A stretch of DNA of 64,000 bases from Candidatus Poribacteria bacterium (lineage in GTDB: Bacteria > Poribacteria > WGA-4E > JAJDTR01), in assembly GCA_965222225.1 (NCBI GenBank), contig CBDCTK010000002.1, positions 2,016,001 to 2,080,000 of the forward strand. Reading direction: 5' to 3'. The notes under the pieces were generated by a model. That model did no database searches and was not told where the DNA came from. It saw only the letters and a program-made list of their open reading frames with translations. This document shows positions 143 through 34,341 of the stretch, piece by piece (within the stretch, counting starts at the first letter, position 1; each line of letters begins with the position of its first letter). The position numbers and the translations under genes were made by a program.

Positions 143-329
143 ATTGAGCGATTGACTAACGAGAGATTATATGACTGAATATGGAATGCGATAGAGTTCC
201 CCTAGAAATCCCTTGTTAATTCCTACATTGCCACCTCTTGTTAAGGTTTGTAAGAGCTCGCTCATGCGAAGTATATTGCAGGAAAAGGCTGGTGGAATCC
301 CTATCGCAGTCATTATCCATTCCATTGAT
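143..329. repeat. Micro-element copies: 166-200 (-) nested in split copy 143-165/201-211; 295-329 (+) inside a REP
   Basis: Match to the GGAT..CTATCGC..TTGAT framework, 35 nt each. Confidence 0.85.
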
Positions 330-366
330 CGCAGTGCGCACCCTACAAATGTGCTTTTTGAGGTCT

Positions 367-1705: not shown

Positions 1706-1787
1706 GTCGGGAATCGGAAGGGATCTCTATCGCGCTCCTTATCCAGTCGCTTGATCTCAGTTGATCGTTCGGTTGATCCCGACTTAC
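1706..1787 (+). repeat. REP (gtcggg...cccgacttac) carrying micro-element 1721-1755 and two tail remnants
   Basis: ggatctctatcgcgctccttatccagtcgcttgat + ctcagttgat + cgttcggttgat. Confidence 0.85.
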
Positions 1788-2930: not shown

Positions 2931-3423
2931 GTAGGAGCGATCTCCAGGTCGCGACCTCCTGTAGGGTGGGATCAAAGGAGTGAGTAGCGACTACGATAGA
3001 GATCCCCTGCCCACCATTTCTTGTAGCAATCGAGAGCGATCGGATAAGGAGCGTTCAACTGAGTGATTAACGAAGGCCATAGAAGATCTTGATAGAGATC
3101 CCATCGCGACAGAACTCCCGTGGAACTCCTCCCGGCCTTTGAAAGCGCCAGCGGCGCGACAGGTGTATAGCGCGCCATTATTCCGTCAGGGATAATGGCG
3201 CGCTATAGATAAAACGTCGGGGCAAGATGCCCCTCCTACATAAAAATGTAAGGCAGTGCCTATTCTACATATCTATCAAGAACACTCTTTCAAAGCTAGT
3301 CATAGAGCGAAAGATGAGTGTTTCTTGCTGAAAGAATCATTCCGACAGGAACGATGGTGTGCTATACACCTTCGGGATTTCTACCGCACTCGCTATTCGC
3401 TCCCTTGATCCCACTCTGGGGCT
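2931..3423. repeat. Mosaic of REP palindromes and micro-elements (2971-3005, 3054-3089, 3375-3409) plus a long hairpin at 3166-3207
   Basis: Direct reading; several GTAG/CTAC-bounded palindromes. Confidence 0.8.
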
Positions 3424-8633: not shown

Positions 8634-8694
8634 GTAGGGGCGGGGATCAAATGAGCGAATAGCGAATACGATAGGGATCTTCCCGCCCCGCCCT
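8634..8694 (-). repeat. REP gtaggggcgggg...cccgccccgccct with micro-element 8646-8680
   Basis: 35-nt insert separates the two arms of the palindrome. Confidence 0.82.
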
Positions 8695-9934: not shown

Positions 9935-10070
9935 GTAGGAGCGATTAAGCGAACGAACAGGGAGCGCGATAGTAAATCCCGTGCGATAGGGATCCTAACG
10001 CGATAGAGCTCCCATAGAGATCCCTCTCCCGGTCGCGACCTCCTGTCGCGAGTAAAACTCGCTCCTACAG
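9935..10070 (-). repeat. REP doublet with micro-element 9944-9979 and three stacked head remnants
   Basis: gtaggagcg[36-nt copy][..gcgatagggatcc][..gcgatagagctcc][catagagatcc]ctctcccggtcgcgac. Confidence 0.82.
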
Positions 10071-19697: not shown

Positions 19698-20567
19698 ATG
19701 GGCGAAATCTATTCTCCCGGTCGGCGTTTTCGTGATGCGTTATCCGTAGAATGCCCGTTGCAGATTGTTGGCGTTATCAACGCTTATGCCGCAATCATGG
19801 CGGAACGTGTGGGGTTTCGAGCTATCTATCTCTCCGGATCGGGGGTGGCAAGCGCGTCTTACGGTTTGCCGGATTTGGGCATGACCACGCTAAATGACGT
19901 GCTGGAGGATGTGCGTCGGATTACGAACGCGACCGAACTGCCGTTACTCGTGGATGCGGATACGGGTTGGGGCAACGCGTTTATGATTGCGAAGACCGTT
20001 CGCCAGATGATTAGGGCGGGTGCCGCCGCTGCCCATATTGAAGATCAGGTGAGCGCCAAGCGTTGCGGTCACCGCCCGAACAAGGAAGTTGTAAGCCCGG
20101 ACGAGATGGTAGACCGAATCAAAGCCGCCGTGGATGCGAAGACGGATCCGGACTTTGTTCTCATGGCGCGGACGGATGCGCTCGCCATTGAAGGGCTTGA
20201 TGCCGCTATCGAACGTGCGTGCCGATACAAAGATGCCGGAGCGGATATGATTTTTGCGGAAGCCGTTACCGAGTTGGAGCAGTACCGAAAGTTTGCAGAC
20301 GCGGTCTGCCTTCCGATTCTGGCGAATATAACGGAGTTTGGCAAAACCAATCTTTACACAACGGAGGAACTCAGGGGCGCCGGAGTGAGTTTGGCGCTTT
20401 ATCCGCTGTCCGCGTTTCGCGCGATGAATGCCGCCGCGCTCCGTGTGTTTCAGGCGTTGCGGGATGAGGGGACGCAAAAGCGCGTGGTTGATATGATGCA
20501 AACGCGAGACGAATTGTACGAAATCCTCAATTATCATGAGTACGAGCGGAAGATTGATCGGTTTTAG
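19698..20567 (+). CDS. prpB: 2-methylisocitrate lyase
   Basis: [35 protein letters not shown]. Confidence 0.95.
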
Positions 20568-20615
20568 AGGAAGAACGGGGAATTGAGGATTTAACAAACG
20601 CAGGTCGTGTTAGGG

Positions 20616-20713
20616 GGATTACGAAGGATGGTGGGCAGGGGGATCTCTATCGCAGTTGTTATTCACTCCTTTGATCCCACCCTACTATCGCCCTCCCTAT
20701 CCGGTCGGTCGAT
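20616..20713 (+). repeat. Three-layer nest: micro-element containing a REP containing a micro-element (20641-20675)
   Basis: 20616-20622 plus 20686-20713 rejoin into a 35-nt copy. Confidence 0.75.
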
Positions 20714-20775
20714 CGATGTCGGATATGGAATGGACTGATTTACAGGGCGACTTTTGTTGTCGCATGAGGTAAACA

Positions 20776-21897
20776 ATGCAAGCAAAAAAGGCAGGTGGTT
20801 TGGCAGGTGTCACCGCCGGTGAAACGGCTATTTGTACCGTGGGTAGAGAAGGGATAGGCTTGACCTATCGCGGGTATGGTATCGACGATTTGGCTGAGCA
20901 CGCGAGTTTTGAGGAGGTCGCTTACCTGCTCATTCATGGCAAGTTGCCCACACAGTCGGAACTGGATGGTTACCGAGAGACGCTGATTGGCGCACGGGGT
21001 TTGCCGACGGGGCTGAAAACGGTGCTTGAACAGTTGCCGGGCGATGCGCATCCGATGGATGTGCTGCGTACAGGTTGCTCGGCGCTGGGGACGATTGAGC
21101 AGGAAACGGAAAGCACAAACCAGTCTCATATTGCCGATCGGCTTGTAGCTAGTCTCCCGTCAATGTTGCTCTATTGGTACCATTTTCATGAGAGCGGGGT
21201 ACGTATCGAGGTGGATACGGATGACGACACGACCGCCGGGCATTTTCTGCATCTGTTGCATGGTCGGGAGGCTGACGAGTTGCAACGCTGCACGGTCGAT
21301 GTGTCGTTGATTCTTTACGCGGAGCACGAGTTTAACGCCTCGACTTTCGCGGCACGTGTCGCCGCCGCCACACTCACCGACTTCTATTCGGCGGTCTCCG
21401 GCGCCATCGGCGCGCTCAGGGGACCGTTGCATGGCGGCGCCAACGAAGCGGCGATGGCGTTAATCGAACAGTTCGGAACGCCGGACGAGGCTGAAACTTC
21501 TGTCCTAGATATGCTCGCGGCAAAGCAGCTCATCATGGGGTTCGGGCACCGGGTGTACACCGTTTCGGATCCGCGCTCGGACATCATCAAAGGATGGTCG
21601 CGAAAACTCTCCGAAGCGAGCGGAGATTTGACGTTGTTTCAGGTTTCCGAGCGGGTTGAAGAGGTGATGCGGCGGGAGAAGAAGTTGTTCCCGAATCTTG
21701 ATTTCTATATGGCGTCCGCGTATCATCTCTGCGGGATTCCAACGCCGATGTTTACGCCGATTTTTGTCATGGGCAGGATAGCGGGCTGGGCTGCGCATAT
21801 CATTGAGCAGCGGAGCAACAATCGTTTGATTCGGCCGGGGGCGGAGTATATCGGTCCGGACCCGACGGCTTACGTACCCATCGGGGAGCGGGAATAG
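20776..21897 (+). CDS. prpC: 2-methylcitrate synthase
   Basis: EHEFNASTF, GPLHGGANE, GFGHRVY, PNLDF; follows prpB. Confidence 0.92.
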   Translation: MQAKKAGGLAGVTAGETAICTVGREGIGLTYRGYGIDDLAEHASFEEVAYLLIHGKLPTQSELDGYRETLIGARGLPTGLKTVLEQLPGDAHPMDVLRTGCSALGTIEQETESTNQSHIADRLVASLPSMLLYWYHFHESGVRIEVDTDDDTTAGHFLHLLHGREADELQRCTVDVSLILYAEHEFNASTFAARVAAATLTDFYSAVSGAIGALRGPLHGGANEAAMALIEQFGTPDEAETSVLDMLAAKQLIMGFGHRVYTVSDPRSDIIKGWSRKLSEASGDLTLFQVSERVEEVMRREKKLFPNLDFYMASAYHLCGIPTPMFTPIFVMGRIAGWAAHIIEQRSNNRLIRPGAEYIGPDPTAYVPIGERE

Positions 21898-21983
21898 CGC
21901 GGCGGGAATGGAAGGAGGGAAGAGCGGATTGGCGTGGACGGACGGAATCGTGGATTTGGTGATTGTCGATTTGATTCTACAGT

Positions 21984-22078
21984 AAAGGCTGGTAAGAGTT
22001 CTATAGGACCTCTATCGCACTCGCTAATCGCCCATTTGATCTGCCTTGACCGTTATTCACTCGCTTGATCCCAACCTA
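21984..22078 (+). repeat. Degenerate REP with micro-element 22006-22040, one head and two tail remnants
   Basis: Direct reading. Confidence 0.75.
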
Positions 22079-22208
22079 AAAGTTTGATTGTTTTATTGGC
22101 TTTTTTGGATTCGTTGTGTTATACTTAATGGTTAGTTCGGACTTTGTATGAAGGTTCAATGTAAACGCTAAAACTTGTACCGAATGAATTTTTAGGAGGT
22201 AATCGGAG

Positions 22209-22478
22209 TTGTCCCATAGAAAATCTGGAGTAAAACATGTTCGTGCGGATAAGAGAAAAGCGGAAGTAAATAGAAGGCGAAAGGTGACGCTGAGAACGAC
22301 GTTAAAGAATGCCGAAGCTGCCATCGCAGCCGGGGATTCGGAAGTCGCCGAGGGACTGTATCGTCAGGCTTCCGGGCGCCTTGACAGGGCGGCACAGAAA
22401 GGCGTAATCAAGCGAGGCACAGCGGACCGCCGGAAGTCACATCTTGCGCAGAAGTTAAACGGCATGAGCGCCGACTGA
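22209..22478 (+). CDS. rpsT: 30S ribosomal protein S20
   Basis: 89 aa basic protein, KSGVKHVR...LDRAAQKGVI...RRKSHL; TTG start with RBS aggagg. Confidence 0.9.
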   Translation: MSHRKSGVKHVRADKRKAEVNRRRKVTLRTTLKNAEAAIAAGDSEVAEGLYRQASGRLDRAAQKGVIKRGTADRRKSHLAQKLNGMSAD

Positions 22479-22514
22479 GTATTGAATTTTTCAGGTCGGT
22501 AGAGGTATCCACCC

Positions 22515-22551
22515 AAAAAGCCCCCAACTCGGAAGAGTTGGGGGCTTTTTT
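22515..22551 (+). terminator. Rho-independent terminator, probably bidirectional
   Basis: AAAAAGCCCCCAACTC-GGAA-GAGTTGGGGGCTTTTTT after rpsT. Confidence 0.85.
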
Positions 22552-22742
22552 CATTGCGGTTTGTAGGCTGGTGAGGGACCAGTCGGACACGAGATGAAAA
22601 GAATGGAGGTGGGCGATTGGGAGAGTGAAGATTGTTGCGGCAAACCAAGTGCAAAAGTGAGCTTGGCCCGTGACAGGAGGTCGCGATCCGGAGATCGCTC
22701 CTACAGTATGACTATAATGGTGTCAATCGAGTCTATACAATG

Positions 22743-22865
22743 CGGGGCAAGATAATCGCTATCGATCAGCCGACTGGATAAGGGGGGATCAAGCGAATGA
22801 ATAATGAGTGCGATAGAACTCCCATAGAAAATCCTGCTCGCTATCCGCTCGCTGGATCCCCTACA
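22743..22865. repeat. REP (cggggcaagat...cctac) holding three nested micro-elements
   Basis: Inner 22788-22822 (-), middle 22765-87/22823-34 (-), outer about 22754-64/22835-57 (+). Confidence 0.8.
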
Positions 22866-22979
22866 GAAACTAACTCCTGCGATTGGGGACGCATTGCAAA
22901 TCGTAGGGGTTGGGTTTCCCAACCCGTTGGGTGGGGTGTTCGCATTGGTAGAGGGGTCTCGCTTAAACGTCAACACACC

Positions 22980-23786
22980 CTACTTTTTCCATGAATTGTG
23001 CCAGACGAGGGTGTTCTGGTTTTCATCGTTCAGGAGATCGCCGATCTTGAGGGAATTGAAGAGGTCTTTCCGTAGGATATTACGTTTGCCGTTAAAGGTG
23101 CACCCATCGGGCATGAAGGCGCATGTCATGGCGCGGCGCGGGGTTATGGTCATGTTGGCGCCCGCGGCGTGCGCCATCAACCCGTTATGCCAGACGATCG
23201 AGCCGGCGGGGCAGGGCACCGGTTGCGGCTCAATGTTGCGCCATTCCGGATAAATCGTGAAGAGTTCGCCGATGTTTTGACCGATGCCGCAGTTCTCAAA
23301 ACGCGCGGTGAGGTGGCTGCCGGGAATGTACCACATACAGCCGTTGGCAAGTGTCGCATCATCCAACGCCACCCAGCAAGAAATAGCCTTCCGTGAATCG
23401 AACGACCAGTACGGGACATCAAGGTGCCATGCGGTCGGATTGCCGTGAGGCGGTTTGATAAGCGCTTGATCGTGCCAGATTCGAATCCCTTCCACTCCCG
23501 CCAGCGCCGCTCCCATCCGTCCAAGCCGGGGATTATGAATCAAATCTCTCATGCCGGGGTGTGTGTCGGCGAGCCGGAGGCACTGCGTAAAGACCCGGGC
23601 ATAAAAGTCGTCGGGCTGCATCTGGTTCGTCATAACATCAATGGAATTCCCCAACCGATCGGCGACGGCTTCGTCCGTGCATTGACGCCACTCCTCCAGT
23701 TCGCCAGCGTCGAGGAAATTCTCAACCGCGATTGATCCGTTGGTTCGGTAGAATTCAATCTGTTGACCTGTCAGTTCGTCCTTCAT
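22980..23786 (-). CDS. Phytanoyl-CoA dioxygenase (PhyH) family protein
   Basis: WHLD, ALDDAT..NGC..IPGSH, HAAGAN. Confidence 0.88.
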   Translation of the reverse strand: MKDELTGQQIEFYRTNGSIAVENFLDAGELEEWRQCTDEAVADRLGNSIDVMTNQMQPDDFYARVFTQCLRLADTHPGMRDLIHNPRLGRMGAALAGVEGIRIWHDQALIKPPHGNPTAWHLDVPYWSFDSRKAISCWVALDDATLANGCMWYIPGSHLTARFENCGIGQNIGELFTIYPEWRNIEPQPVPCPAGSIVWHNGLMAHAAGANMTITPRRAMTCAFMPDGCTFNGKRNILRKDLFNSLKIGDLLNDENQNTLVWHNSWKK

Positions 23787-23970
23787 AAGGTGTCATTTGC
23801 CCTTAACGTAGTTCGACTTCGTATACTTAGCTCGACTTTGTACATCTAGGCCGAATAACAGACGATGGCAACCAAGCGTTGAAGAAAAGCAGGGGAGATT
23901 TTAGCCATCTGGTCTTTTTAGTTGACTATTGAAAAAGTCGTCAGCGGTTTCTGAGATCATGCAACCTGTA

Positions 23971-24023
23971 AGATCTCTATCGACTTGGGATCTTCTATCG
24001 CGCTCATTATTCATTCGCTTGAT
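23971..24023 (+). repeat. Micro-element 23988-24023 plus a head remnant
   Basis: ggatcttctatcgcgctcattattcattcgcttgat. Confidence 0.85.
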
Positions 24024-24030
24024 CCTTGCA

Positions 24031-24924
24031 TTAAAGGAAGAACGGGTTTGACCACGCCTTCTTGCCTTCCTCATCGACGATTTCCACGCGGACATATTTC
24101 ATGCCGCTCGGCACAGGGTACTCCGCCTCGGTTAGGCTTTCGCCTTTCGGAGCGAGGATACGCCGCCCGAGATTGCATTGTCCTTTGAATATGATGGACC
24201 GGGCGGGGGAACATTTGACAACGACTTTTTGTTCGCGGGCGGAGTCGCCAACCAGATCGAGATTCACAATTTCGGGACCGAGCGTCGAATAGAAGGCGCC
24301 GGTGCGGAAGGCATTCATGATCGCGTCGATTGTGAGCTCAGCCGCTTTTACCATAACCCAGGCGTGGAAGCAGTCGTGTTCAGTACCGTGCGCATCGTCG
24401 GCGGCAATGCCAAAGACAGGTCCAAGCCGATCTAGCACATCGTCCCACGCCTGTTCGGAGAATCCTTTCCCGCAGGCGCCCATACAGGTGTCGTTGTAGA
24501 CTTCGACGGCGAAGTAGCCGTTGAGTTGCTCGTAATCCTGAATCGTGTGTCCGCACCAGTACGGGTGGCAGAGCACGGCTTCCCCGCCTTGGGCTTTGAT
24601 TTCGGCGAGGACATCGTTGGGGTGGAGTTCGGCACAGTTGATACGTTCGCGGAGGTTGATGCCGACGATGTGATAGGTTCCACCTCCGTATGGATTATCA
24701 GGATGAACTTCGCTGCCGGAGATGGCGAGGAAGTTATCACGGCTGTAAGGGGATACGTCGTTGACTTTTCGGTGATCGGTGAGCACGAGGAAATTGTATC
24801 CGGCGTCACGGTAAGCGGCGAAGCGTTCGTCCATCGGAATCCTGCCATCGGATTCGGTGCTGTGACTGTGTGTGTTCCCTCGATACCATTGTCCGGACTG
24901 TTTGAACGGGTTTAGATTCTCCAC
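24031..24924 (-). CDS. PHP-domain metallohydrolase (CehA/McbA-like)
   Basis: GNTHSHSTESDG, LTDH, CHPYW, ADDAH, AWSNP; GTG start with RBS aggag. Confidence 0.78.
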   Translation of the reverse strand: MENLNPFKQSGQWYRGNTHSHSTESDGRIPMDERFAAYRDAGYNFLVLTDHRKVNDVSPYSRDNFLAISGSEVHPDNPYGGGTYHIVGINLRERINCAELHPNDVLAEIKAQGGEAVLCHPYWCGHTIQDYEQLNGYFAVEVYNDTCMGACGKGFSEQAWDDVLDRLGPVFGIAADDAHGTEHDCFHAWVMVKAAELTIDAIMNAFRTGAFYSTLGPEIVNLDLVGDSAREQKVVVKCSPARSIIFKGQCNLGRRILAPKGESLTEAEYPVPSGMKYVRVEIVDEEGKKAWSNPFFL

Positions 24925-25131
24925 AGGGCGTCTCCTTTTTTGTGATGTAGATTCTCATCTTAGCACACGGGGGTGGAAATGAGAAGGGGAAAAAGGGGAA
25001 GGATGGAAGAGAAGCAGTGGTCAGTGACCAGTAAAACCAGGGGCGAGCAGTGTGTGAGAAGGGAGCGAGATTGGAAGGGAAGTGGTGGGCGGGTCAAGAT
25101 GGCGCGCCTATCGAAGTTCGGCAGGGCAAGA

Positions 25132-25220
25132 AGATTTCTATCGATCAAGGGAGCGACCAGCGACTGCGATAGCCAATCCCGCGCGGATAGCCCATCCTGC
25201 TCATTGTTCAGTCGCTTGAT
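25132..25220. repeat. Nested micro-elements: 25144-25179 (-) inside 25132-43/25198-220 (+)
   Basis: Outer halves rejoin to 35 nt. Confidence 0.82.
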
Positions 25221-25225
25221 CCCGA

Positions 25226-26050
25226 CTACGGGTTGACTGCGTCTCTTGCCAAGTGGGGGAAGAGCTGGTCATGGATTTCCATTGGCTGGCGGAGGTGAAC
25301 CATTCGATTCTCGTCGGCGGTGTCTATCATGGTGGGATAGTATATGCCGGCTCCGGTTTTGAGCTTGTAACCGCCCGGCGAATGTACGCTGAGATAGCGG
25401 CGCGCGAATTCGAAGTCTTCGGGTGTTTTGGCGCGGCGGGTGCAATTCATGGTGAACATGCGCCTGCGATTTCCGCCGCCGAAGGAGGCGTGGTAGAGAT
25501 CGTGATTGAAAACCACAACATCGCCCGGATTGGTCTCCATGGCGACGCTGTCGGGGAAGTCCGTGGGCGGGACGCCGAAAAGCTCAAGTGAGTTATTGAC
25601 ATCTATCTTCCCCGTGCGGACGAAGTGATCGGGCTTGTGGCTGCCGGGAATGAAACGCAGCGCCCCCGTGTCGCGGGTGAGCGGATCCAAATAGAACGCA
25701 ATCTTGGCGGCGAAGAGCTGCCCCCAGCTTCCGTCGGGGTGCCAGCCGGTGTTGCCGCTGTAGTAGTTTCCGTCGCCGCCACAGTAGTTGAAATCGTCTC
25801 CCAGAATGCTTCCGATAAGGTCGAGTATCATGGGGAGATCGAGCAACGCGCACATGTCGGGTCTATGTTCAATGGGTTTTAGGAACATGGTGCGGCGCGA
25901 GCCGTCGTGGTCTCGTCCGCCGCCGCAGTTTTGGATTGACCATTCAAATCTTTCGATGATTTCGTCTGTCTCTTCAGGTGAGAACAGTTGCGGGATCAGC
26001 AGGTAACCAAAGGTGTCGAAGAATCTCAGTTGCTCTTGCGTCAGTGGCAT
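25226..26050 (-). CDS. PhyH family dioxygenase
   Basis: WHPD, GALRFIPGSH, PGDVVVFNH..H. Confidence 0.85.
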   Translation of the reverse strand: MPLTQEQLRFFDTFGYLLIPQLFSPEETDEIIERFEWSIQNCGGGRDHDGSRRTMFLKPIEHRPDMCALLDLPMILDLIGSILGDDFNYCGGDGNYYSGNTGWHPDGSWGQLFAAKIAFYLDPLTRDTGALRFIPGSHKPDHFVRTGKIDVNNSLELFGVPPTDFPDSVAMETNPGDVVVFNHDLYHASFGGGNRRRMFTMNCTRRAKTPEDFEFARRYLSVHSPGGYKLKTGAGIYYPTMIDTADENRMVHLRQPMEIHDQLFPHLARDAVNP

Positions 26051-26350
26051 TTTTTGTTACCTCCTAGAAGAAGGGGATTGGAAAGGTGGAAGCGTGGAAG
26101 GTTGGAAGGGTGCCTTCCGCGCCGGCTTGGATTTTCTGGAGCGGGAAAATGGAAGCGGAATATTTGGGTTTCACGGGGTTCAACGCAACCTACGGGCTAT
26201 AGTCATTACAGCTAAGAATTACACATTTAGGACCCACATTGTTCGGTTTGCAGTAACGTAATTTACTGCACGTCTTCTGTAGGTGCGAGCTCTGCTCGCG
26301 ATAAGAAGTCGCGACCTGGAGATCGCTCCTACAAAGACCCATACCTGTCG

Positions 26351-26421
26351 GGATCTCTATCGATCAACTGAGTGGATAGCGAAGGCGATAGAAAATCCTA
26401 CTCGCTATCCACTCGTTTGAT
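26351..26421. repeat. Nested micro-elements: 26363-26398 (-) inside 26351-62/26399-421 (+)
   Basis: Outer halves rejoin to 35 nt. Confidence 0.85.
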
Positions 26422-27238
26422 CGGGCCGATTGGGCCAGACGAGCGGGGTCTGAGATTCGTCGTCGAGGACGTCTCCGATATTGAGTGCGGCTACCTGCTC
26501 ATCGGACAGAACGTTTTGGATACCGTTGAAGGTCACCCCATCCGGCATATAGATGCAGGTCATCGCTCGGCGCGGATACGGCGTCATATTCGGGCCGGCG
26601 GCATGGGCAGTGAGTCCGTTGTGAAACCCGGCAGATCCAGCCTTCATCTCGGCTGCCACAGGATCAATCTCTCTGAATTCGGGATATTCGTCGAAGAGAG
26701 CACCCATATTCGGGCCAAAATGCCCTTTTTTTTCATAGTTGGTCATCTTGTGTGAGCCGGGCAGATAATACAGGCAACCATTCTGAAGCGTCGCATCGTC
26801 CAAGGCAATCCAAATGGAGATGGCGTCAGGAGAGTGAAATGACCAATTGGGATCATCCACGTGCCAGGATGTGGGGTTGTCCCAGGCGAGTTTCTGTAGT
26901 GTCTGATCGTGCCACACCCGGATGCCGTCAATGCCAGCGAGTTTGCAAAGCATTTTCCCCAGCTCGGGGTTCAGAAAGTGCCTTTTGACGGCGTCATTGA
27001 TTTTCCACAGGTTGACTCGCTGCAGAAAGACCCTTTGGTTAAACGGCTTCACCTCTTGGAAGAGCGCTTTGTTGCTTTTTCCTCCGTCCGCAATTCTGTT
27101 GCTCCCCATCTGCGTCACGGTTTCACTGACAGCGAAGCACATTTCCTGCAGCTCGTCGGAGGTGAGAAAGTCTTCGAGTATGAGCCAACCCTCGCGCTGA
27201 TAAAGTTCAACTTGTTGGGATGTCAATGCTGTTTTCAT
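26405..27238 (-). CDS. PhyH family dioxygenase; last codons and stop lie within a micro-element copy
   Basis: WHVD, ALDDAT..NGC..LPGSH, HAAGPN; clear paralog of 22980-23786. Confidence 0.88.
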   Translation of the reverse strand: MKTALTSQQVELYQREGWLILEDFLTSDELQEMCFAVSETVTQMGSNRIADGGKSNKALFQEVKPFNQRVFLQRVNLWKINDAVKRHFLNPELGKMLCKLAGIDGIRVWHDQTLQKLAWDNPTSWHVDDPNWSFHSPDAISIWIALDDATLQNGCLYYLPGSHKMTNYEKKGHFGPNMGALFDEYPEFREIDPVAAEMKAGSAGFHNGLTAHAAGPNMTPYPRRAMTCIYMPDGVTFNGIQNVLSDEQVAALNIGDVLDDESQTPLVWPNRPDQTSG

Positions 27239-27489
27239 CTTAATGCCTCCAAATTACAGATTATTGAAAATCGACTTAGCATGTCTACTGCTCAAGCCAA
27301 CAGGCAGTCAATAAATACCTGTGGTAGCAGGTATGAAACCTTTTCTGAAGCGGAATCCGGTTTTCCAAGTGGTTTGCTTGATAAGTGTTTAATGCAAGTC
27401 AAGAGGTCGAGACCGGGCGACTGCTCCTACAGGGACGCGCAGGTCGCGATTCGGAAATCGCTCCTACCAGTTAGCGTAAGGCGGTTTAC

Positions 27490-27541
27490 GGCACACGGGG
27501 GTTTCTATCGCACTCCTTATTCAGTCGCTTAATCCTACTAC
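27490..27541 (+). repeat. REP ggcacacgg..cctactac with micro-element 27499-27533 replacing 6 nt
   Basis: Compare the intact repeat at 6660-6682, ggcatacagagtgtgcctactac. Confidence 0.8.
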
Positions 27542-27553
27542 TTTGAAACGATG

Positions 27554-28405
27554 TTACCTAGGTTTCTTTATATGTGCCCACGTTGTGACGAGTTTTCCGG
27601 GCGTAGAAACGGCTAACGTATCAGCCAATCCCTCCTCGGTGAGTTGTTGGAGATCTTCCTCGGACAGCGCAACCTTAAAGACGGCAACATCGTCTACCAT
27701 GCCGTCCAAATAGTGTTCGTCACGTGGTTTTGCCGTTCTTCCAATGTTTAGGGGCGCCCCTTTTGCATTTCCTGCCTTGATCGAGGTCGTCCAGTCTTTC
27801 TCGCCAATCAGTTTTCCGTCATAGAACATCCGCATTTTATTTCCGCTACGTCCCATCGCGTAATGATGCCACTCCATATACTTATAGCGCCCAGGGACTT
27901 GGGGGCCCATATCTGTACCACCGCCGCCGCCGCCGCCGCAACCGATACAAAAATGAAAATATAATTGTTCGCCGGCGCAACAATGCCTTAACCTAAACCA
28001 CCATCCATCCCAGAATACCGCATCCAAAAGTGCAGATGTGTAGCCCATGATGTTGTAACGTCTGTCTTTTCCTCGTTGGTCCATAAGGACGTAGGCAGCG
28101 ATGGTAAAGTCATCGTCTCCAAATGCCCAAGCATCATTGGCGTTCGGCACCTCGACATAACCATCCTCGCCGTCCAGCACTATGCCGCCGCCAAACTTCC
28201 CCTTTCCCCAAGTGGCACCGCCCTTGAGTGTCGCAATGTTCCCATTACGGCTGAGATCAACACTTCGCTTTCCTTCACCCTCATCAAAGCTCAACGCGAC
28301 TACGGCGCTCCTGATATTTATCTCGGCATCGCCGGTTTCCATCATCAGACTGAAGGAGGCAATTGCCACAGTTACCATGAGTGACGCAATAGTTAGACAT
28401 TTCAT
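27554..28405 (-). CDS. Secreted LamG-like jellyroll protein with KLVTTW tail
   Basis: SFDEGEG, GKFGG, WHHYA, GMVDDVAVF, PGKLVTTWAHIK; RBS gaggtg before 28405. Confidence 0.82.
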   Translation of the reverse strand: MKCLTIASLMVTVAIASFSLMMETGDAEINIRSAVVALSFDEGEGKRSVDLSRNGNIATLKGGATWGKGKFGGGIVLDGEDGYVEVPNANDAWAFGDDDFTIAAYVLMDQRGKDRRYNIMGYTSALLDAVFWDGWWFRLRHCCAGEQLYFHFCIGCGGGGGGGTDMGPQVPGRYKYMEWHHYAMGRSGNKMRMFYDGKLIGEKDWTTSIKAGNAKGAPLNIGRTAKPRDEHYLDGMVDDVAVFKVALSEEDLQQLTEEGLADTLAVSTPGKLVTTWAHIKKPR

Positions 28406-28833
28406 TGGTTCACCTCGCCAAATTACGGTTCGTTCCCGTATGCCTTCATGTGCTTCGGTCATTTCGAGGACGAACCAGTGATTAAATGTATAGAGATTCA
28501 GCAAATGTAAAGTGCTAACGCGAACGGCAACATGCCTGAACAAAAAGTGAAAGCAGTTGGAGCGGAAATAAATACGGCTCTTCCCAAGAAACCGTGTTGA
28601 AGAAATCGATCCCCACTGCTGCTGAATTCACGTGGCTTGTCTCCAAAAACTCGGGGTTTCAAGTGATTTGCACTTAATCTTGACATGAACTTGCAATGGT
28701 TCTCAAATTTACGATGTTACATTTTATCACGTCCTTACGCAAAACCGCAAGAAGTACCAACATTCCATTCGACCCACGAACCATAATCGCCGAAATGACC
28801 GATGTTGCGCACCATCTTGCGGTCACGTATCGC

Positions 28834-30642
28834 TTACTGCACCGGCAGTACCTGAGAGGCGATAAACCGTTTGACCTCGTGCATTGGTGCACCCCCCGAT
28901 TTGAGGTGTTCCCGTTGGAAGAAGGGGTACTTGCTCTCCGCGGCTTCGTCGTCGGATTCGCGCGGGGTGATATCGACTACCGTGTTGCCCCGCAACGACA
29001 CGGTGTAGCGGGTGCCGCAGATGGTATACTGTTCGGTGGTCTCCGGCACCGGAAATTCGACGCGAATCTTCTCGCCACCGGCAAGATGGTCGAACAAAAT
29101 GTTATTGCCGACACGGTGCAAACCAATCGCCTTATCCTTCACGTAACAGGCAAGCTGCGCTACGTCGATCCACCTCGGGAGCCGCACTTGAACTGCCCTG
29201 GCTTGCTTGTTATGGATGGCGACCTTGCCTTGGAAAGGCAGGTAACTGTGGATGTCCATCCACGGCGCCGCCCGATTGAGGAGCATATTCACGGTGGCTA
29301 CGCCGTTGGAAAATCGCGTTATGCCTTCCCACGCGGTATATAAAGCGCGGTTCCCGTTGGCGGTACAGCATCCAAAAACGGAGGAATGCGGGTTCACGAG
29401 TAGCTTTGCTTGCGTGAAACCGCCCAGAAATTGCCGATGCACTTCATCGTATGCGTCGCTGCCACAGGCACGCCGCATGCGCTCTATATCCGTCACCTGT
29501 AATTCCACGAAATGGTTGCGAACGATGCTGTCTATGTCATCCCAATAGTCGCCCAGCCCGGCATCCGTGAGTCGAATCGCGAGAATCAGCGTATCCGCAA
29601 CCCCGCAGCCTTCATTCTGCTCCAGACTCCACTCTGCATCCCTTCCCATCATCGGCTTGATCCAGCCGGGCATGAAGCCTAGCCGAATGACGCCGTGGCG
29701 ACGTGCATGTTCGTAGCCTTCCCGGACAACTTGCGAGAGCGCTGAATCGTTTTCGGTAAGGGCAAAATGTAGAAGGGTTTCCAGGAAACCCATATTCCCG
29801 TGGAAATGTCCGGTAAACTGACCATGTTCATGCGGCGGGACGCTCGCATCGTCAGCCTCATGGCTCCAGAGCGCCGGCTTCAGGCAAAACTTGATTAGCT
29901 TTCGTGCACAAGCGAGCGCCTCTTGATCACCGGTCATTTGGTAACACTGCACGAGTGCCTTGATCGAGCCAGAATGCTCAAACTTGACAGTGCCTTCCTG
30001 TCCCTGCGAGTCGTGTATCGGTTCGTCGGGCGGCGAGTAGGGGAGATATCCGGGTGCGTCGCCGCTACCACGCAGCGTCCAACGCCACACGCCTGACGGA
30101 TCCAGGCTGCATTCAGGGGGGATATAGGCGTACTCACCACAGTCAATCGATGCTCGTTTCAGCCCTCGCCACAGTAGGTGAAGCCAGGGCATCCACAAAT
30201 CTTCGCCGTCAAGCCCGTGTCGCAACGCCAATGCCTGCGCCAATATACCGTTGAACATCGGGTAGGACGTGTTAGGCGGGGGGCCATCGCCACTAATGGG
30301 ACAATAGAGCAAACCGTCCGCTTGAATTTGCTTGAGGAATGCCCTCCACGCTTCGGTCTCCACCGCGAGATTTAGATCGCTTCCGCACATTAACCGGATG
30401 AGCGGCAATGTCCGTAGGAACTTGGGTGTCAGCCAGTTAGGTGGGCCAATCATTGGCGGCTGATGGCTGAAGCGAAATGTCTGCGTTATGGCATAGCCTT
30501 CGTCGGGGCGGAAATTCGTCAATGCGTTAACAGCTAGCGCCGCGCGTTCCGCCAAATCGAGCGTATCGGGGACGGTAGTCGTATAGTGCTCGCCGGGCGG
30601 GGCAGCAATGGCGGGTTCATGATGATTCGTGGTTTCTAGCAT
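28834..30642 (-). CDS. Hypothetical protein, possibly an (alpha/alpha)6 GH127-like glycoside hydrolase
   Basis: 602 aa; GHFH, EGC and GCCTANG motifs plus a C-terminal beta domain (VRLPRW) resembling GH127/146. Confidence 0.5.
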   Translation of the reverse strand: MLETTNHHEPAIAAPPGEHYTTTVPDTLDLAERAALAVNALTNFRPDEGYAITQTFRFSHQPPMIGPPNWLTPKFLRTLPLIRLMCGSDLNLAVETEAWRAFLKQIQADGLLYCPISGDGPPPNTSYPMFNGILAQALALRHGLDGEDLWMPWLHLLWRGLKRASIDCGEYAYIPPECSLDPSGVWRWTLRGSGDAPGYLPYSPPDEPIHDSQGQEGTVKFEHSGSIKALVQCYQMTGDQEALACARKLIKFCLKPALWSHEADDASVPPHEHGQFTGHFHGNMGFLETLLHFALTENDSALSQVVREGYEHARRHGVIRLGFMPGWIKPMMGRDAEWSLEQNEGCGVADTLILAIRLTDAGLGDYWDDIDSIVRNHFVELQVTDIERMRRACGSDAYDEVHRQFLGGFTQAKLLVNPHSSVFGCCTANGNRALYTAWEGITRFSNGVATVNMLLNRAAPWMDIHSYLPFQGKVAIHNKQARAVQVRLPRWIDVAQLACYVKDKAIGLHRVGNNILFDHLAGGEKIRVEFPVPETTEQYTICGTRYTVSLRGNTVVDITPRESDDEAAESKYPFFQREHLKSGGAPMHEVKRFIASQVLPVQ

Positions 30643-30716
30643 ACGGTTTTATGCCTTCTACAAGGGTTGGCTATTTAGCTATTCCTGTATTAGTGGTTTT
30701 CTCGCCGAGTGAATAG

Positions 30717-30802
30717 GGTAAGTGTTGGGTGTCGGTAGCTAACATTGTCTGAAGTGTGATTCATGGGATTTTGGGATTACCTTGATTGTAGGCGTTTAGT
30801 GG
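30717..30802. repeat. About 86-bp direct repeat, copy 1 (copy 2 at 32715-32800)
   Basis: ggtaagtgttgggtgtcggt.gctaacattgtctgaa..gtgattcatgggattttgggattaccttgattgt. Confidence 0.9.
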
Positions 30803-30873
30803 TTTATTCGCTAAGAGAGGATACGATAAAGTGTTCAGTTGCCAGTAGTGATTCTCCAGCCAACCCCCTTAGG

Positions 30874-31044
30874 GGAGTTGTATCAGGAACTCCTATCGCA
30901 GTCAATGTGGGATCTCTATCAGAATCTTCTATCGCGCGGGATTTACTATCGCACGCACTATGGGATTTGCTATCGCCTTGGGATCTCTATCGCGGTCGTT
31001 ATTCACTGCCTTGATCTATCCGCTCAGTTGATTGGTCGGTTGAT
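30874..31044 (+). repeat. Deep stack of micro-elements: six heads, one intact copy (30981-31015), two tails
   Basis: Seven GGA..(C/G)TATC starts followed by three TTGAT ends. Confidence 0.85.
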
Positions 31045-31201
31045 CCTACGGAGTGGCGAGTAAAACTCGCTCCTACAGAAGACACGCAATAAATGAAGAT
31101 CCCATCTTCGATTTGACGATCAAAGAGCGCTACTGCAAACCGAACTGCGTAAATCCTATGTGTTTAATTCTTAGTTGCACTGACTATAGTAGTGACTTGG
31201 G

Positions 31202-32671
31202 TTAGTACGCCACTGAAGTCAAGATCTCGTGTACAATGATTGGGTTGTCTGTCTTATCTAGCTCGGAATTGCACCAGACAGTTAGGTCGTTGCGTCCCAC
31301 GTTCATGATGCCGGAGGGTACTTCTGCCGAATAACAGCCGTTCCGGGGCTGCAGGTCTAGCAGCGTATGGTTGAGGCGCATCCAGACCTTTGCGTCAGTG
31401 CCTCCGCCGGTGGTCAGTGCATGAATCCGGAAGTGCGCGTCGGGATTATTCGCGTCGGGTCCCATCTTCAGAGGTAATCTGCGTTCATGGATGTCCAACG
31501 GAATGGGAAGCGGAGCGATCTCGGAAGCCTGACTGAACATTCCTGCAACTGCGAGCGGTTCGATGCCGTAGAGCTTGTCGTTGCCGACAAGCTCGGCAGG
31601 ATCGCCAATTTCCTTCAGTGGCGCATATACGCGCTTGTTATCCAATCCCCGCACATCTACGTGGGTGAAGAAGTTAAAAAGATAAATACCATCGACTCCT
31701 TCGTGCCACCACCAGGCGGCGGCTCCACGGATGTATTCCTGCCATGCGTAAGGCTGCGCCGCTATCTCGGGGCACCACCGGAGAGGAGGTCTGGCACAGA
31801 ACGAAGGATAGACGGACACCCCGTAACGCTCGCCCACGGCTTTCCAGCCCTCTAGATTGAATGTGAACGGCATTAACCCCATGCCGGCAACCAAGACATC
31901 CACCAGCCCCTGCGACAGCCAGGTTTCGATGTCCTGTCCAAGGAGAAGGGAGCTCTCAATGGAATCCATCACACGCACCACCAATGTGTATGGACGATTA
32001 CGTTGGCGGGCGATAGCGTTCAACTCAGAGCGTACGCTCCGCACGAAGTCTGTCATGAGCGGGGCAAGTTCGCGTTCTCTGCCCAACGGGAAGTTCCAGA
32101 TCCAGCGCGAAAAGTCCAGCTCGTAGCCGTCGAAGTCGTGGGCGGCGGCATTGCGGCGGATGAAATTAAGCCGGTGTTCTCGCACTTCGGGGCGCTCGAA
32201 GTTGAAGGCGGTACGCAACATACGCTCGACATGTTCTTCGGGTAGATTGCGGTCGTCGGACTTACCGATTAGGTATTCCGGATGTTCCGCTTTTAGGGGA
32301 TCGTTGGTTTCCTCCAGGTCAAGCTCATGGTCGTGCAGGTCGTTCATGCGAAGTGAACCCCAGATTTCCATGCGCTTGGCGTGGCAGGCGTTGATGATGA
32401 GATCGGTCGCGCGCTGTGATGTACCGAGGGCAGGCCAGATAGGGCCACGGTGTTTGGGGCCCCAGATCGGTCCCCACGGGGGATCGCAGCCGTTTCCGAC
32501 ACACCAGACGTATGTGTCGACGTGCGTGTCGAAGGTAGGCGTGGTTCTGGCGTCGATGAACGACTGCTCATCCGTGATGTTGTACCAGTGTTTGCGGCTG
32601 CGCTGGTTTGTTTGTTGATAGGCGTCGTCGTTGTAGATGAGGCGTCGTTGGCGGTCTCTATCGAATAGCAT
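31202..32671 (-). CDS. Putative TIM-barrel glycoside hydrolase (GHL10-like)
   Basis: LIYNDD, SLRMNDLH, FDGYELDFSR, DGIYLFNF. Confidence 0.55.
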   Translation of the reverse strand: MLFDRDRQRRLIYNDDAYQQTNQRSRKHWYNITDEQSFIDARTTPTFDTHVDTYVWCVGNGCDPPWGPIWGPKHRGPIWPALGTSQRATDLIINACHAKRMEIWGSLRMNDLHDHELDLEETNDPLKAEHPEYLIGKSDDRNLPEEHVERMLRTAFNFERPEVREHRLNFIRRNAAAHDFDGYELDFSRWIWNFPLGRERELAPLMTDFVRSVRSELNAIARQRNRPYTLVVRVMDSIESSLLLGQDIETWLSQGLVDVLVAGMGLMPFTFNLEGWKAVGERYGVSVYPSFCARPPLRWCPEIAAQPYAWQEYIRGAAAWWWHEGVDGIYLFNFFTHVDVRGLDNKRVYAPLKEIGDPAELVGNDKLYGIEPLAVAGMFSQASEIAPLPIPLDIHERRLPLKMGPDANNPDAHFRIHALTTGGGTDAKVWMRLNHTLLDLQPRNGCYSAEVPSGIMNVGRNDLTVWCNSELDKTDNPIIVHEILTSVAY

Positions 32672-32714
32672 GTGTACCCGATCCTTTTAAATGGTCTATT
32701 TTCTAAGAGTATAT

Positions 32715-32800
32715 GGTAAGTGTTGGGTGTCGGTCGCTAACATTGTCTGAACCGTGATTCATGGGATTTTGGGATTACCTTGATTGTCAGTGTTTGGTGG
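32715..32800. repeat. About 86-bp direct repeat, copy 2
   Basis: Matches 30717-30802 with about 7 substitutions. Confidence 0.9.
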
Positions 32801-32851
32801 CTGATTGTCTGAATCGCGGATTAGGTTCGGCTAAGCGATATCTCTCGTAGA

Positions 32852-32941
32852 GTCGGGCTAGAAAGGATTTCTATCCGGATTTTCTATCACCCTCCCTGTC
32901 CGGTCGGTTGATCGCTATTCGCTCGCTTGATCCCGACCTAC
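32852..32941 (+). repeat. REP gtcgggctagaaa..cccgacctac with micro-element 32877-32912 nested in a second split copy
   Basis: Direct reading. Confidence 0.82.
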
Positions 32942-33063
32942 CGGGGTCATGGAACTATTACGGACCTCAATGTCCCCGTGTCAGCAACAAATTTCTCCCC
33001 GACGCACTTAGACGCATTTTTGGGCTTGCACGACAGCCCCGGCTACTGAAACTGTCCACTGGG

Positions 33064-34341
33064 TTACTGATAAAACCACTCCAATGGATAGATTCGCAGT
33101 ACACGTTCACTGGTTAAGCGGGCCTCCCCGCCTTGCTGTGCCATCCAACCCCGGGAGTAGGTGACATAGACCTTGTCGGCGGCAAAGCAGATGTTAGGAT
33201 AGTAGATGTTCGCGTAATCATCGGGTAGAGTGCCGATATAGTCTTGGGCTCGCACCGGTCGAACAGGATATTCGGCAGGGATGCGCTCGACATCCTCCAA
33301 CCCGGCGCTAAGCTCGAGAGTTTTGAAGTTCTCCCAGGTTGCACCACTGTCTCGGGATATTGCGGCTGATAGCCGCCCCCGGAGATATCCTCGGCGTATC
33401 TCTGCGTGGGAGACCTGATTCCATACACAGATTAAGTCACCTGTCCGGGGGATGCGGCGCAGCCGCGGGGGTGAGTAGGAGCTTGCTAACTCGGTGGGCT
33501 TGACCGCACTCCACGTCTTGCCATCGTCCGCGCTATAACTGTGGAGTATCCTGCCAACGGTCGAGCGAGCGAAAAGTAACACGCGGAGATTGTTGGTTTC
33601 AGCCACCGAGGGCTCATCACAGGGCGTCACTCCACAATTGCCATTGACCACACCCTCGAAATCAAACCAACCCATCAGGCACCCGTATTCCTTAAAGGGA
33701 CTCCACGTCTGCCCTTGGTCGTCGGAGTAGTAAACGAAGGCAATCTCCATCTGGGGGCAGTGACCTTCTCCCTCAACAGAAGCCGGCAGCCCTCTCCAGG
33801 TTCCCCATGCCTCACATTCCGGCACGCGTGACGCGCCGCCTATCGGCAATCCCAAGCCATCGTCGGGATGGTAGCCTCCCAGTACCGTTCTTCGAGGGCA
33901 CAGCATCCTGCCGCCGGACAGCTGGATTATAGTGTCGGACAAGCCGTGTCGAGCAGTATCCAAGGGAATTTGGCGAGGCGCGTCCCATGTTTCTCCTCGG
34001 TCCTGTGATATCCATATGTGGTCGTTACTCGTGAGAGCTATAGCCCCTGAATTGAGGCAGGTCAAGCCGTTTCCACTCACGCCATCGCCGAATGAGCGCG
34101 GCTCGCTCCACGTTTTGCCTTCGTTTGCGGAGTCGCTTCCATTTTGCGCCAGCAGGCTTCCATCGGGTAGCTCCACAAGGCTGCTGACGCCGGTACCGAT
34201 AATTTCGACCACTCCTTCGGGAGGTGGCTTGCGCCAGACTGGCTTGGTTGCTGCCTGTTCAGCGGTTTTGCCGCCAACGGAATTGTATACTAGAGCGCCC
34301 AAAAAATTTGATATTTGCATGGTATGATTTTTCTTGGTCAA
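33064..34341 (-). CDS. Sialidase-family (BNR/Asp-box) protein
   Basis: Five Asp-box-like repeats (SQDRGETW, SDDQGQTW, SADDGKTW, SRDSGATW), CDEP, YYP; start uncertain (34341 or 34320). Confidence 0.75.
   Translation of the reverse strand: MTKKNHTMQISNFLGALVYNSVGGKTAEQAATKPVWRKPPPEGVVEIIGTGVSSLVELPDGSLLAQNGSDSANEGKTWSEPRSFGDGVSGNGLTCLNSGAIALTSNDHIWISQDRGETWDAPRQIPLDTARHGLSDTIIQLSGGRMLCPRRTVLGGYHPDDGLGLPIGGASRVPECEAWGTWRGLPASVEGEGHCPQMEIAFVYYSDDQGQTWSPFKEYGCLMGWFDFEGVVNGNCGVTPCDEPSVAETNNLRVLLFARSTVGRILHSYSADDGKTWSAVKPTELASSYSPPRLRRIPRTGDLICVWNQVSHAEIRRGYLRGRLSAAISRDSGATWENFKTLELSAGLEDVERIPAEYPVRPVRAQDYIGTLPDDYANIYYPNICFAADKVYVTYSRGWMAQQGGEARLTSERVLRIYPLEWFYQ

Follow-up and report, generated by a model that had tools for sequence, protein, structure and literature searches.

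How does a repeat of 37 nt come to lie inside another copy of itself, and that copy inside a third? The question is raised by a 64,000-nt stretch of a Candidatus Poribacteria genome (positions 2016001-2080000 of contig CBDCTK010000002.1, here C2, so C2:2016001-2080000; called the window below), in which three copies of a short dispersed repeat are enclosed one within the other at 22743-22865, the whole placed within a repetitive extragenic palindrome (REP). A preliminary description of the window had proposed that the element targets itself at one site, CTATCG^, and that each such locus records successive insertions in order. The account that we favour, and regard as somewhat probable, is that the repeat is a REP-like, non-autonomous mobile element, moving as single-stranded DNA, that carries an insertion hot spot for its own kind.

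An iterated nhmmer search seeded with the inner copy at window 26363-26399 yields 1066 matches at E<1e-3 in the 5.70-Mb, two-contig genome (50% G+C), and the same genome contains 931 full-length, non-overlapping copies. On its pyrimidine-rich strand the element reads GGGATCT, CTATCGC, N2, TC, N2, TATYC, N2, TC, N2, TTGATC (the + strand copy at window 1720-1756 is near consensus); information content of the alignment is zero beyond these 37 columns. A 14-nt head (GGGATCT-CTATCGC) is followed by a 23-nt tail that contains a hairpin and ends in TTGATC, and three box-like repeats occur along the element at a spacing of about 11 nt. Two types of head are found. Short-head copies are 37 nt long; long-head copies (38 nt; 218 of 924) have one additional base before CTATCG and start with A or G. 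Density is approximately one copy per 6 kb, and 63 of the 931 full copies fall inside a rough set of open reading frames (ORFs).

A copy is counted as nested if taking it out restores another copy around it. (What this means operationally is that removals were tried within +/-5 nt of the ends of a copy and the best 37-nt window spanning the resulting joint was scored with a position weight matrix (PWM) made from 924 copies, a nest requiring at least 25 bits in total and at least 5 bits from either side of the joint; the range for real copies is 33-57 bits, and the same procedure applied to 400 random genomic sites never exceeds -9.7 bits.) Removal of the inner copy restores an outer one for 222 of the 931 copies (23.8%), in the same orientation in 197 and in the opposite orientation in 25, and in 39 of the 222 the outer copy lies, in turn, inside a further one. 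Set against the 3.1% of non-ORF DNA (rough ORF map) that the element occupies, this is an enrichment of about eight-fold. That split copies rejoin when the inner one is removed, and that inner copies lie in either orientation, had been reported for the window, and both observations are borne out, with restored outers of 34-36 nt. The phenomenon is not confined to this genome: 80 of 279 copies in other Poribacteria assemblies are nested, and in six other species the orthologous intergenic regions likewise contain a full copy with a partial copy after it. Two other procedures were set aside. Strict excision with nhmmer (E<1e-3) restored only 65 outers and no third layer, an under-count since rejoined copies lack 1-3 nt, and a mismatched-flank control (108-127 apparent nests per 930) is invalid as a null because about a quarter of the flanks are themselves halves of outer copies.

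The three-layer nest of the window (positions are collected in Table 1) is recovered by successive removal at the scores given there: taking out 22765-22834 restores layer 1, with its break after model position 13 (22764/22835), and taking out 22788-22821 restores layer 2 (break 22787/22823). All six breaks named in the preliminary description score above the random null and four of them are strong; the remaining two, 165/201 and 3053/3090, fall below 25 bits. At 3053/3090 the outer head (3090-3102) still scores 15.9 bits, and the outer tail (about 3029-3052) is decayed and contains an insertion or deletion. The break at 25143/25198 is restored by removal of 25144-25197, a piece of 54 nt comprising the inner copy and an additional 18-nt head-like fragment (25180-25197).

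Positions of the breaks are far from uniform in the genome-wide histogram that had been suggested as a check (chi-square 1675, 29 degrees of freedom). In the ungapped parse 110 of the 222 nests break after model position 13 (CTATCG^), which is the boundary between the head and the hairpin module; 87 of these are same-orientation and 23 opposite-orientation nests, and the 23 make up nearly all of the 25 opposite-orientation nests known. The other breaks fall at position 16 (31), 17 (12), 19 (22), 22 (7) and 23 (14), and further at 26 (5), 15 (4) and 32-33 (10), with a few singles; positions 16-19 together account for 66, and nests at positions 16-23 split the outer hairpin. In the other assemblies 44 of the 80 nests, and 9 of 10 opposite-orientation nests, break at position 13. 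Self-targeting at CTATCG^ can thus be kept as the main hot spot but not as a single site, because four or five other clusters of breaks exist.

The junctions follow rules. In the raw parse one nt of the target is missing in 66 nests, two in 62 and three in 68 (1-3 nt in 196 of 222), and none in 6. With the inner copy taken as complete, the outer sequence resumes at position 15 (109, after frame correction), 19 (33), 20 (17), 21 (17), 26 (21) or 38 (10), and the outer base just before that position is C. Once the long-head frame is corrected for, long-head inserts are seen to take the place of GC (13-14) or TC (17-18, 24-25) and to add 36 nt net, short-head inserts to take that of CGC (12-14, 18-20) and to add 34 nt net. 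Both orientations are found only where the replaced word is the self-complementary GC, and TC sites contain same-orientation inserts only. A filled and an empty version of one site can be compared directly: the copy that is intact at C2:4130160-4130300 (-) recurs at C2:5627930-5628040 (+) with exactly 36 additional bases between T23 and T24.

These rules also dispose of a 1-nt replacement that had been postulated at opposite-orientation junctions from the T found there in place of C. The T itself is real: it follows CTATCG in 20 of the 23 opposite-orientation nests. Among 39 same-orientation counterparts, outer column 13 holds A 21 times and G 17 times, and of about 704 solitary copies 660 have GC at that place. 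Long-head copies, whether nested or not, carry A or G on the 5' side of GGAT in 214 cases out of 218; because this holds whatever the context, the odd base has come with the inserted copy, and it is the outer copy that lacks its GC. The T is the complement of the inner 5' A. Duplication of a GATC target, a serine-recombinase core dinucleotide, a G^C cut with a 35-nt insert, and two adjacent cuts were each considered, and each fails at least one class of junction. No simple model tried reproduces all of the classes.

A shared breakpoint need not mean a preferred target. A few composites (head-head-tail-tail blocks) might have been multiplied whole, in which case the common break would be a mark of common descent, and some nests have clearly been propagated in this manner. 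Eleven of the 14 position-23 nests fall into a single cluster, situated where a larger repeat of ~150 nt ends; two paralogues of the window's triple nest, one of 115 nt with 93% identity and another elsewhere with 84%, likewise parse as triple nests; and 33 of the 222 nests are redundant at no more than 4 mismatches in both inner and outer parts. It follows from the position-23 cluster and the triple-nest paralogues that nests can be re-copied as units. Nevertheless, the 222 nests still form 189 clusters at that cut-off, inner and outer stem types combine in 104 different ways among the 110 nests at position 13, other species use this hot spot at other loci, and the paralogue pair described above differs by exactly one insert. 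Most nests must be separate events, since their inner/outer stem-type pairs nearly all differ, and multiplication of a few composites is an unlikely source of the pattern as a whole.

The proposal that each locus is an ordered record of insertions accordingly survives in part. Most nests do represent separate events, but composites are re-copied, and one nest predates species splits: that at 26350-26422 is common to three species, occupying the orthologous place in G005 and, in decayed form, in G009, and is therefore older than these species. On average, inner copies are less decayed than outer ones (0.63 vs 0.88 mismatches, p 0.03) and keep more stem pairs (3.86 vs 3.57, p 6e-4), both differences being in the direction expected from layering but also favoured by the selection thresholds. 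The inner stem of the 26350-26422 nest differs between species, with CT/AG here and GG/CC in G005 (L014 1950-2045), both sides of one step being changed; either the stem evolved by compensatory change or a different copy took over the site.

The tail hairpin and its strand asymmetry are features that the preliminary description did not contain. The hairpin has two 2-bp covarying steps, separated by a constant TC/TC that reads as tandem G.A on the purine-rich strand, and a 5-nt loop. Among 924 copies, Watson-Crick pairs join columns 19-27 in 93% (G-C, A-T and C-G all being common), columns 16-30 in 92%, columns 20-26 in 84% (with a further 115 C.A) and columns 15-31 in 69% (with a further 237 A.C). 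G.T on the pyrimidine-rich strand amounts to only 1-2%; because A.C and C.A are common there and G.T is not, the wobble pairs are assigned to the purine-rich strand. Covariation was counted in 69 distinct copies from several genomes, drawn by a pattern that leaves the stem positions free: 97.5% of cells are paired vs 79.7 +/- 1.1 in shuffles (0 of 500 shuffles reach this value), cells in which both sides have changed number 86 vs 20.3, and slid controls are 15-49% paired. With 216 stem signatures in the genome (41 of them represented by at least 5 copies) and all four pairs kept in 784 of 924 copies (85%), the hairpin points to recognition of the element by its shape and not by the sequence of its stem.

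This pairing bears on a quite different explanation, which dispenses with transposition and treats heads and tails as modules of an ~11-nt periodic low-complexity repeat, shuffled by slippage, template switching or unequal recombination between TATCGC / TATTCGC / TGATCGC boxes. The three boxes with their ~11-nt spacing, breakpoints that coincide with boxes, and unbalanced arrays (11-17-nt head runs and extra tails) all speak for it. Direct repeats, however, do not explain pairing at 97.5%; inner and outer stems differ while each is internally complementary, an outcome that local slippage cannot yield; the 25 opposite-orientation nests need an inverted foreign copy; and copies sit at fixed points in unrelated REPs and also beside unique DNA. 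We consider shuffling of this kind quite unlikely.

The same hairpin might suggest that copies, nested ones included, are structured RNA or DNA motifs (for example transcript ends or protein-binding sites) maintained by selection on the host. On that view, covariation and conservation between species would stem from a local function and not from selfish spread. Consistent with this are the 784 copies that keep four pairs across 216 signatures, the wobble asymmetry, which indicates that one strand folds, and the preservation of the 26350-26422 nest in three species with one stem changed on both sides. Such a role is nonetheless very unlikely. Orientation is unrelated to neighbouring ORFs (135 vs 179, 121 vs 139 in co-directional contexts); Rfam gives no match in the window at gathering score, nor any in 22600-27600 at E<=1; folding is weak; the element content of orthologous intergenic regions differs widely between species; and nests at positions 16-23 split the hairpin of the outer copy.

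The element is not its own sole target: by simple flank patterns, 178 of the 931 copies lie at five fixed points in REPs of four other classes (at least four such classes being used). Two of these points, after GGCTGGT and after GCGCAG, are both in a REP of the GGTGCGCAGTGCGCACC kind; one, after GGAGA, is in a REP of the GTCGCGAYC..GATCGCTCCTAC kind; and the others follow GGGGCAAG in a third kind and CCTGTC in the GCCCC..GGGGC kind. The bases replaced at REP points again end in C (GC, TGC, TC). Another 531 copies have no assigned target class. Left flanks do not share a single word, the most frequent 5-mers being TCTAT (82), TATCA (48) and GCACG (46) of 924.

Orientation of the element follows GC skew, which serves as a proxy for replication. 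Of 928 copies, 630 place the pyrimidine strand on the G-rich one (p 4e-28), and the preference persists (352 of 538) when no more than one copy per 2 kb is counted. In 100-kb bins orientation correlates with GC skew (Spearman 0.56) vs 0.07 for gene-strand bias, and the element's own composition would push skew the opposite way. The link with skew points to a possible involvement of single-stranded DNA at the replication fork, the skew itself being patchy and origin and terminus not placed on it. GC skew changes sign many times along the 5.6-Mb contig C2 and does not divide it into two replichores, which indicates either extensive rearrangement of the chromosome or inversions in the assembly.

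Single-strand movement directs attention to nucleases of the HUH/Y1 type. There are five matches to Y1_Tnp in the genome, namely an IS200-like gene that is intact and encodes 157 aa (NF033573, 65.8 bits; REP-tyrosine model, 30.6 bits, below the cut-off of 80), an intact 247-aa gene and a 124-aa gene that resemble REP-associated tyrosine transposases (RAYT), and two that are broken. The three unbroken genes lie at C2:3080258-3080728, 2563965-2564705 and 3727643-3728014. The IS200-like gene is found in 10 of 10 genomes of the host genus (9 of 9 others and this one), and copies of the element lie within about 200 nt of it at 5 of 6 host-genus loci (of 9 genus genomes with a match). A RAYT fragment at C2:3560265-3560543 has an element copy on each side, a weak association given one copy per about 6 kb. 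The REP nuclease of E. coli requires stem mismatches for binding and cuts at a dinucleotide-defined site, and its covalent intermediate could be joined by any 3'-OH (PMC3479197). These properties make the HUH/Y1 class attractive, and it is the best candidate class for an enzyme that would move the element.

The Y1-type genes have surroundings and histories of their own. The REP that flanks the IS200-like gene has the tag ACATGTC or ACCTGTC and the stem GCCCC/GGGGC, and is inverted (L126 1440-1500, 1990-2030; L133 1420-1500, 1990-2120); one of the REPs flanking the gene in this genome is split by a 37-mer. The 247-aa RAYT-like gene (C2:2563965-2564705), present in 3 of 41 relatives, is 99% identical to G005:C1:3780663-3781403, genes shared by the two genomes being 80-91% identical, which suggests that it was transferred recently.

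Taken together, the observations would be accommodated by the following scheme. The replication fork would be the place where the element, mobile now or formerly as a discrete single-stranded unit recognised by its shape, is processed. On insertion, the pyrimidine strand would always have its TC-3' end just after a target C, replacing GC, TC or CGC, with a loss of 2 nt in the case of long-head and 3 nt in the case of short-head copies. Hairpin repeats would be preferred as targets, hence the five fixed points in four other REP classes, and the strongest target would be found in the element itself, where head and hairpin meet at the GC of positions 13-14. This word is the same on both strands, and no other self-site is used in both orientations. 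Repeated insertion would add layer upon layer, giving nests of two, three or more; such a composite, keeping intact ends, could itself be re-copied. The family, its covariation and asymmetry between strands, the counts of nests, the rules at junctions, the targets in REPs, the link with skew and the occurrence in other genomes are direct observations; single-strand mobility, the order of events and the class of enzyme we infer.

A number of observations weigh against this scheme. Folds of the element as DNA are weak (-0.2 to -2.2 kcal/mol, z-scores near 0), and with RNA parameters the z-scores on the purine strand are -0.2 to -1.3. (With those parameters three of four purine strands fold as a 3+2+2-bp interrupted hairpin, which additionally pairs ATC of the 5' GATCAA with GAT of GCGATAG.) Among 202 copies that follow a head-like left flank, 109 have no recognisable outer tail, and arrays are not always balanced in the way that nesting alone would lead one to expect: runs of 11-17-nt heads precede one full copy, and extra tails are also seen, these arrays being either decayed nests or by-products of the insertion reaction. 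The regular loss of 2-3 nt of target differs from what IS200/IS605 or REP chemistry would give. The one orthologous nest examined (26350-26422) is old, and the comparison of inner with outer age is biased by different selection thresholds. No presence/absence polymorphism between close strains was seen among contigs that break at every copy and metagenome loci of 40-58% identity, so that mobility at present is only a possibility. As for the enzyme, none is tied to the element: phyletic patterns of the three Y1-type genes do not match its distribution, in that 7 of 7 genomes from an element-free genus also carry the IS200-like gene, the other element-rich genus has it in 2 of 4 only, and the two RAYT-like genes are sporadic (3 of 41 and 5 of 41 genomes); and the IS200-like gene is flanked by its own, different REP, here and in the element-free genus.

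Short contigs of four runs over window 20000-33500 break at every copy and their joints connect different copies; none bridges a nest, and one 986-nt contig is identical to window 21829-22814. Metagenome loci for the gene beside the 26350 nest are those with 40-58% identity. No empty site for the triple nest was found in the closest species, where the interval corresponding to 22540-22985 is unrelated sequence.

It remains doubtful whether the reaction is of a kind so far undescribed for bacterial repeats, namely one in which hairpin DNA at the fork would receive, by copying or ligation, a 37/38-nt single strand recognised through its G.A-mismatched mini-hairpin, in place of a (C)GC/TC word, with one junction fixed by that word and the loss set by the head type of the insert. 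If this were so, the element would be the smallest self-homing mobile DNA known, and its nests a built-in stratigraphy of activity.

Coordinates of copies in the window follow. Over 26405-26422, the outer tail of the 26350 nest overlaps the last codons of a 277-aa minus-strand ORF (26405-27238).

Table 1. Copies of the 37/38-nt element in the window, with the parts of nested copies given separately (bits after removal refer to the rejoined outer copy)
Feature	Positions	Strand	Remarks
Triple nest, layer 1 (outermost), head part	22752..22764	+	inside REP of GCGGGGCAAG...CCCTACAG kind
Triple nest, layer 1, hairpin/tail part	22835..22858	+	rejoined copy 34.5 bits
Triple nest, layer 2 (opposite to layer 1), tail part	22765..22787	-	rejoined copy 32.4 bits
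Triple nest, layer 2, head part	22822..22834	-	same removal
Triple nest, layer 3, innermost intact copy, oriented as layer 2	22787..22823	-	nhmmer 38.8 bits, PWM 54.8
26350-26422 nest, outer head part	26350..26362	+	54.3 bits after removal (break 26362/26399)
26350-26422 nest, inner copy, long-head type, opposite orientation	26362..26398	-	nhmmer/PWM
26350-26422 nest, outer tail part; first base T = complement of inner 5' A	26399..26422	+	
25131-25221 nest, outer head part	25131..25143	+	45.9 bits after removal
25131-25221 nest, inner copy, opposite orientation	25143..25179	-	nhmmer
25131-25221 nest, outer tail part	25198..25221	+	PWM
Decayed nest, inner copy	3053..3089	-	rejoined outer 5.1 bits
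Decayed nest, degenerate inner copy	165..201	-	PWM 31.0; rejoined outer 14.2 bits
Solitary full copy	294..330	+	nhmmer
Solitary full copy, near-consensus	1720..1756	+	nhmmer
Full copy	2970..3006	-	nhmmer
Full copy	3374..3410	+	nhmmer
Full copy	8645..8681	-	nhmmer
Full copy, long-head type	9943..9979	-	nhmmer
Full copy	20640..20676	+	nhmmer
Full copy	22005..22041	+	nhmmer
Full copy, at end of ~150-nt larger repeat	23988..24024	+	nhmmer
Full copy	27498..27534	+	nhmmer
Full copy, innermost of multi-layer nest in genome-wide parse (C2:2046980)	30980..31016	+	
Full copy, long-head type	32877..32913	+	nhmmer

Two other kinds of repeat accompany the element in the window. A REP consisting of GTC, a 6-bp stem GCGATC / GATCGC and then TCCTACA occurs twice, at 22680-22706 and 26308-26334; REPs with this stem are one of the at least four classes that serve as fixed insertion points for the 37-mer. 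The dispersed repeat of ~150 nt, at 23825-23985, ends in CAACCTGTC and has a dozen or more copies, 76-91% identical (for example C2:5627811-5628019, 5050461-5050669 and 2961534-2961739). Almost every copy has a 37-mer after it, often in the form of the same nested composite; two paralogues have a different end and no element.

Where, then, does the element belong? It resembles REPs and REPINs (the doublet form of REPs) in being short, extragenic and of high copy number, in its imperfect, mismatched hairpin and in varying its stem with pairing kept, and RAYT-like as well as IS200-like genes are present in this genome. REPs, too, are reported inserted within other small palindromes (PMC3733652). 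On the other hand, a consensus of 73 aligned copies contains neither a GTAG or CGTC tag nor its complement; the element is strand-asymmetric, mostly non-palindromic, and has a single hairpin in place of a doublet, its opposite-orientation nests being interleaved copies and not hairpin doublets; no cognate RAYT is indicated by neighbourhood or phyletic pattern; and a self-nesting hot spot with a loss of 2-3 nt is not described in the parts of the REP literature consulted.

With transposons of the IS200/IS605 family, the element shares single-strand logic, recognition of a hairpin, the lack of a target duplication and an orientation linked to replication (here by way of GC skew); the orientation bias of IS608 and ISDra2 is tied to replication. 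These transposons have hairpins at both ends, however, whereas the element has one, in its tail, and an unpaired head, and they insert 3' of a fixed 4-5-nt word without loss, whereas the element uses no fixed word and 1-3 nt are lost. The small dispersed repeats (SDRs) of heterocystous cyanobacteria, reportedly described by Elhai et al. in 2008, are said to be mobile repeats of 21-27 nt that share a predicted hairpin and lie inside other repeats, by a mechanism said not to be known. They differ from the element in phylum, length and sequence. They are named as SDRs in PMC3116915.

Because the element lacks the REP tag and departs from IS200/IS605 in its ends and its target, it is filed as a member of neither, although it is closest to REP/REPIN and to SDRs; these designations are working terms. 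Nesting as such is familiar from eukaryotes, in the 'Russian dolls' of long terminal repeat (LTR) retrotransposons and of miniature inverted-repeat transposable elements (MITEs) and in twintrons, where layering gives relative order. There, as here, the layers give order and inner copies are on average less decayed; the eukaryotic elements differ in measuring 100 nt to many kb, in having known enzymes, and in nesting mostly by density and not at a hot spot that they encode themselves.

In the 176 genomes of the phylum that were scanned, the element is abundant in 10 of 10 of the host genus and 4 of 4 of one other genus; among the remaining 162, five have no more than 13 exact-pattern matches each and 157 have none. 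The two element-rich genera, g1 and g4 (G012, G015, G021, G027), belong to different families, with 280-760 exact pattern matches per genome in g1, about 110-126 in g4, and near absence in between. This patchy, two-genus distribution fits horizontal spread or repeated loss. A scan of viral contigs for the element gave 0 matches. The literature searched, mostly in the form of titles and starts of abstracts, yielded nothing on Poribacteria repeats or self-nesting micro-repeats, and as far as that search extends there is no description for Poribacteria of such a family, of its G.A-mismatched covarying hairpin, of hot spots in REPs and in itself, or of regular target loss.

To our knowledge, the spread of repeats shorter than 40 nt is still unsolved, work on REPIN/RAYT and on cyanobacterial SDRs being the main attempts. 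The element offers hundreds of junctions at which both partners are known, so that the exact bases gained and lost can be read, and these constrain the mechanism in four ways: one junction always falls after a target C; the loss is 2 or 3 nt according to the type of insert; both orientations occur only at GC; and orientation bias is linked to replication. If the enzyme were found, a cargo-free, site-preferring insertion unit of 37 nt would be of interest for DNA-insertion tools. For the sponge symbionts themselves, the layers of the nests provide a relative time order that may be used to date bursts of activity in their genomes.

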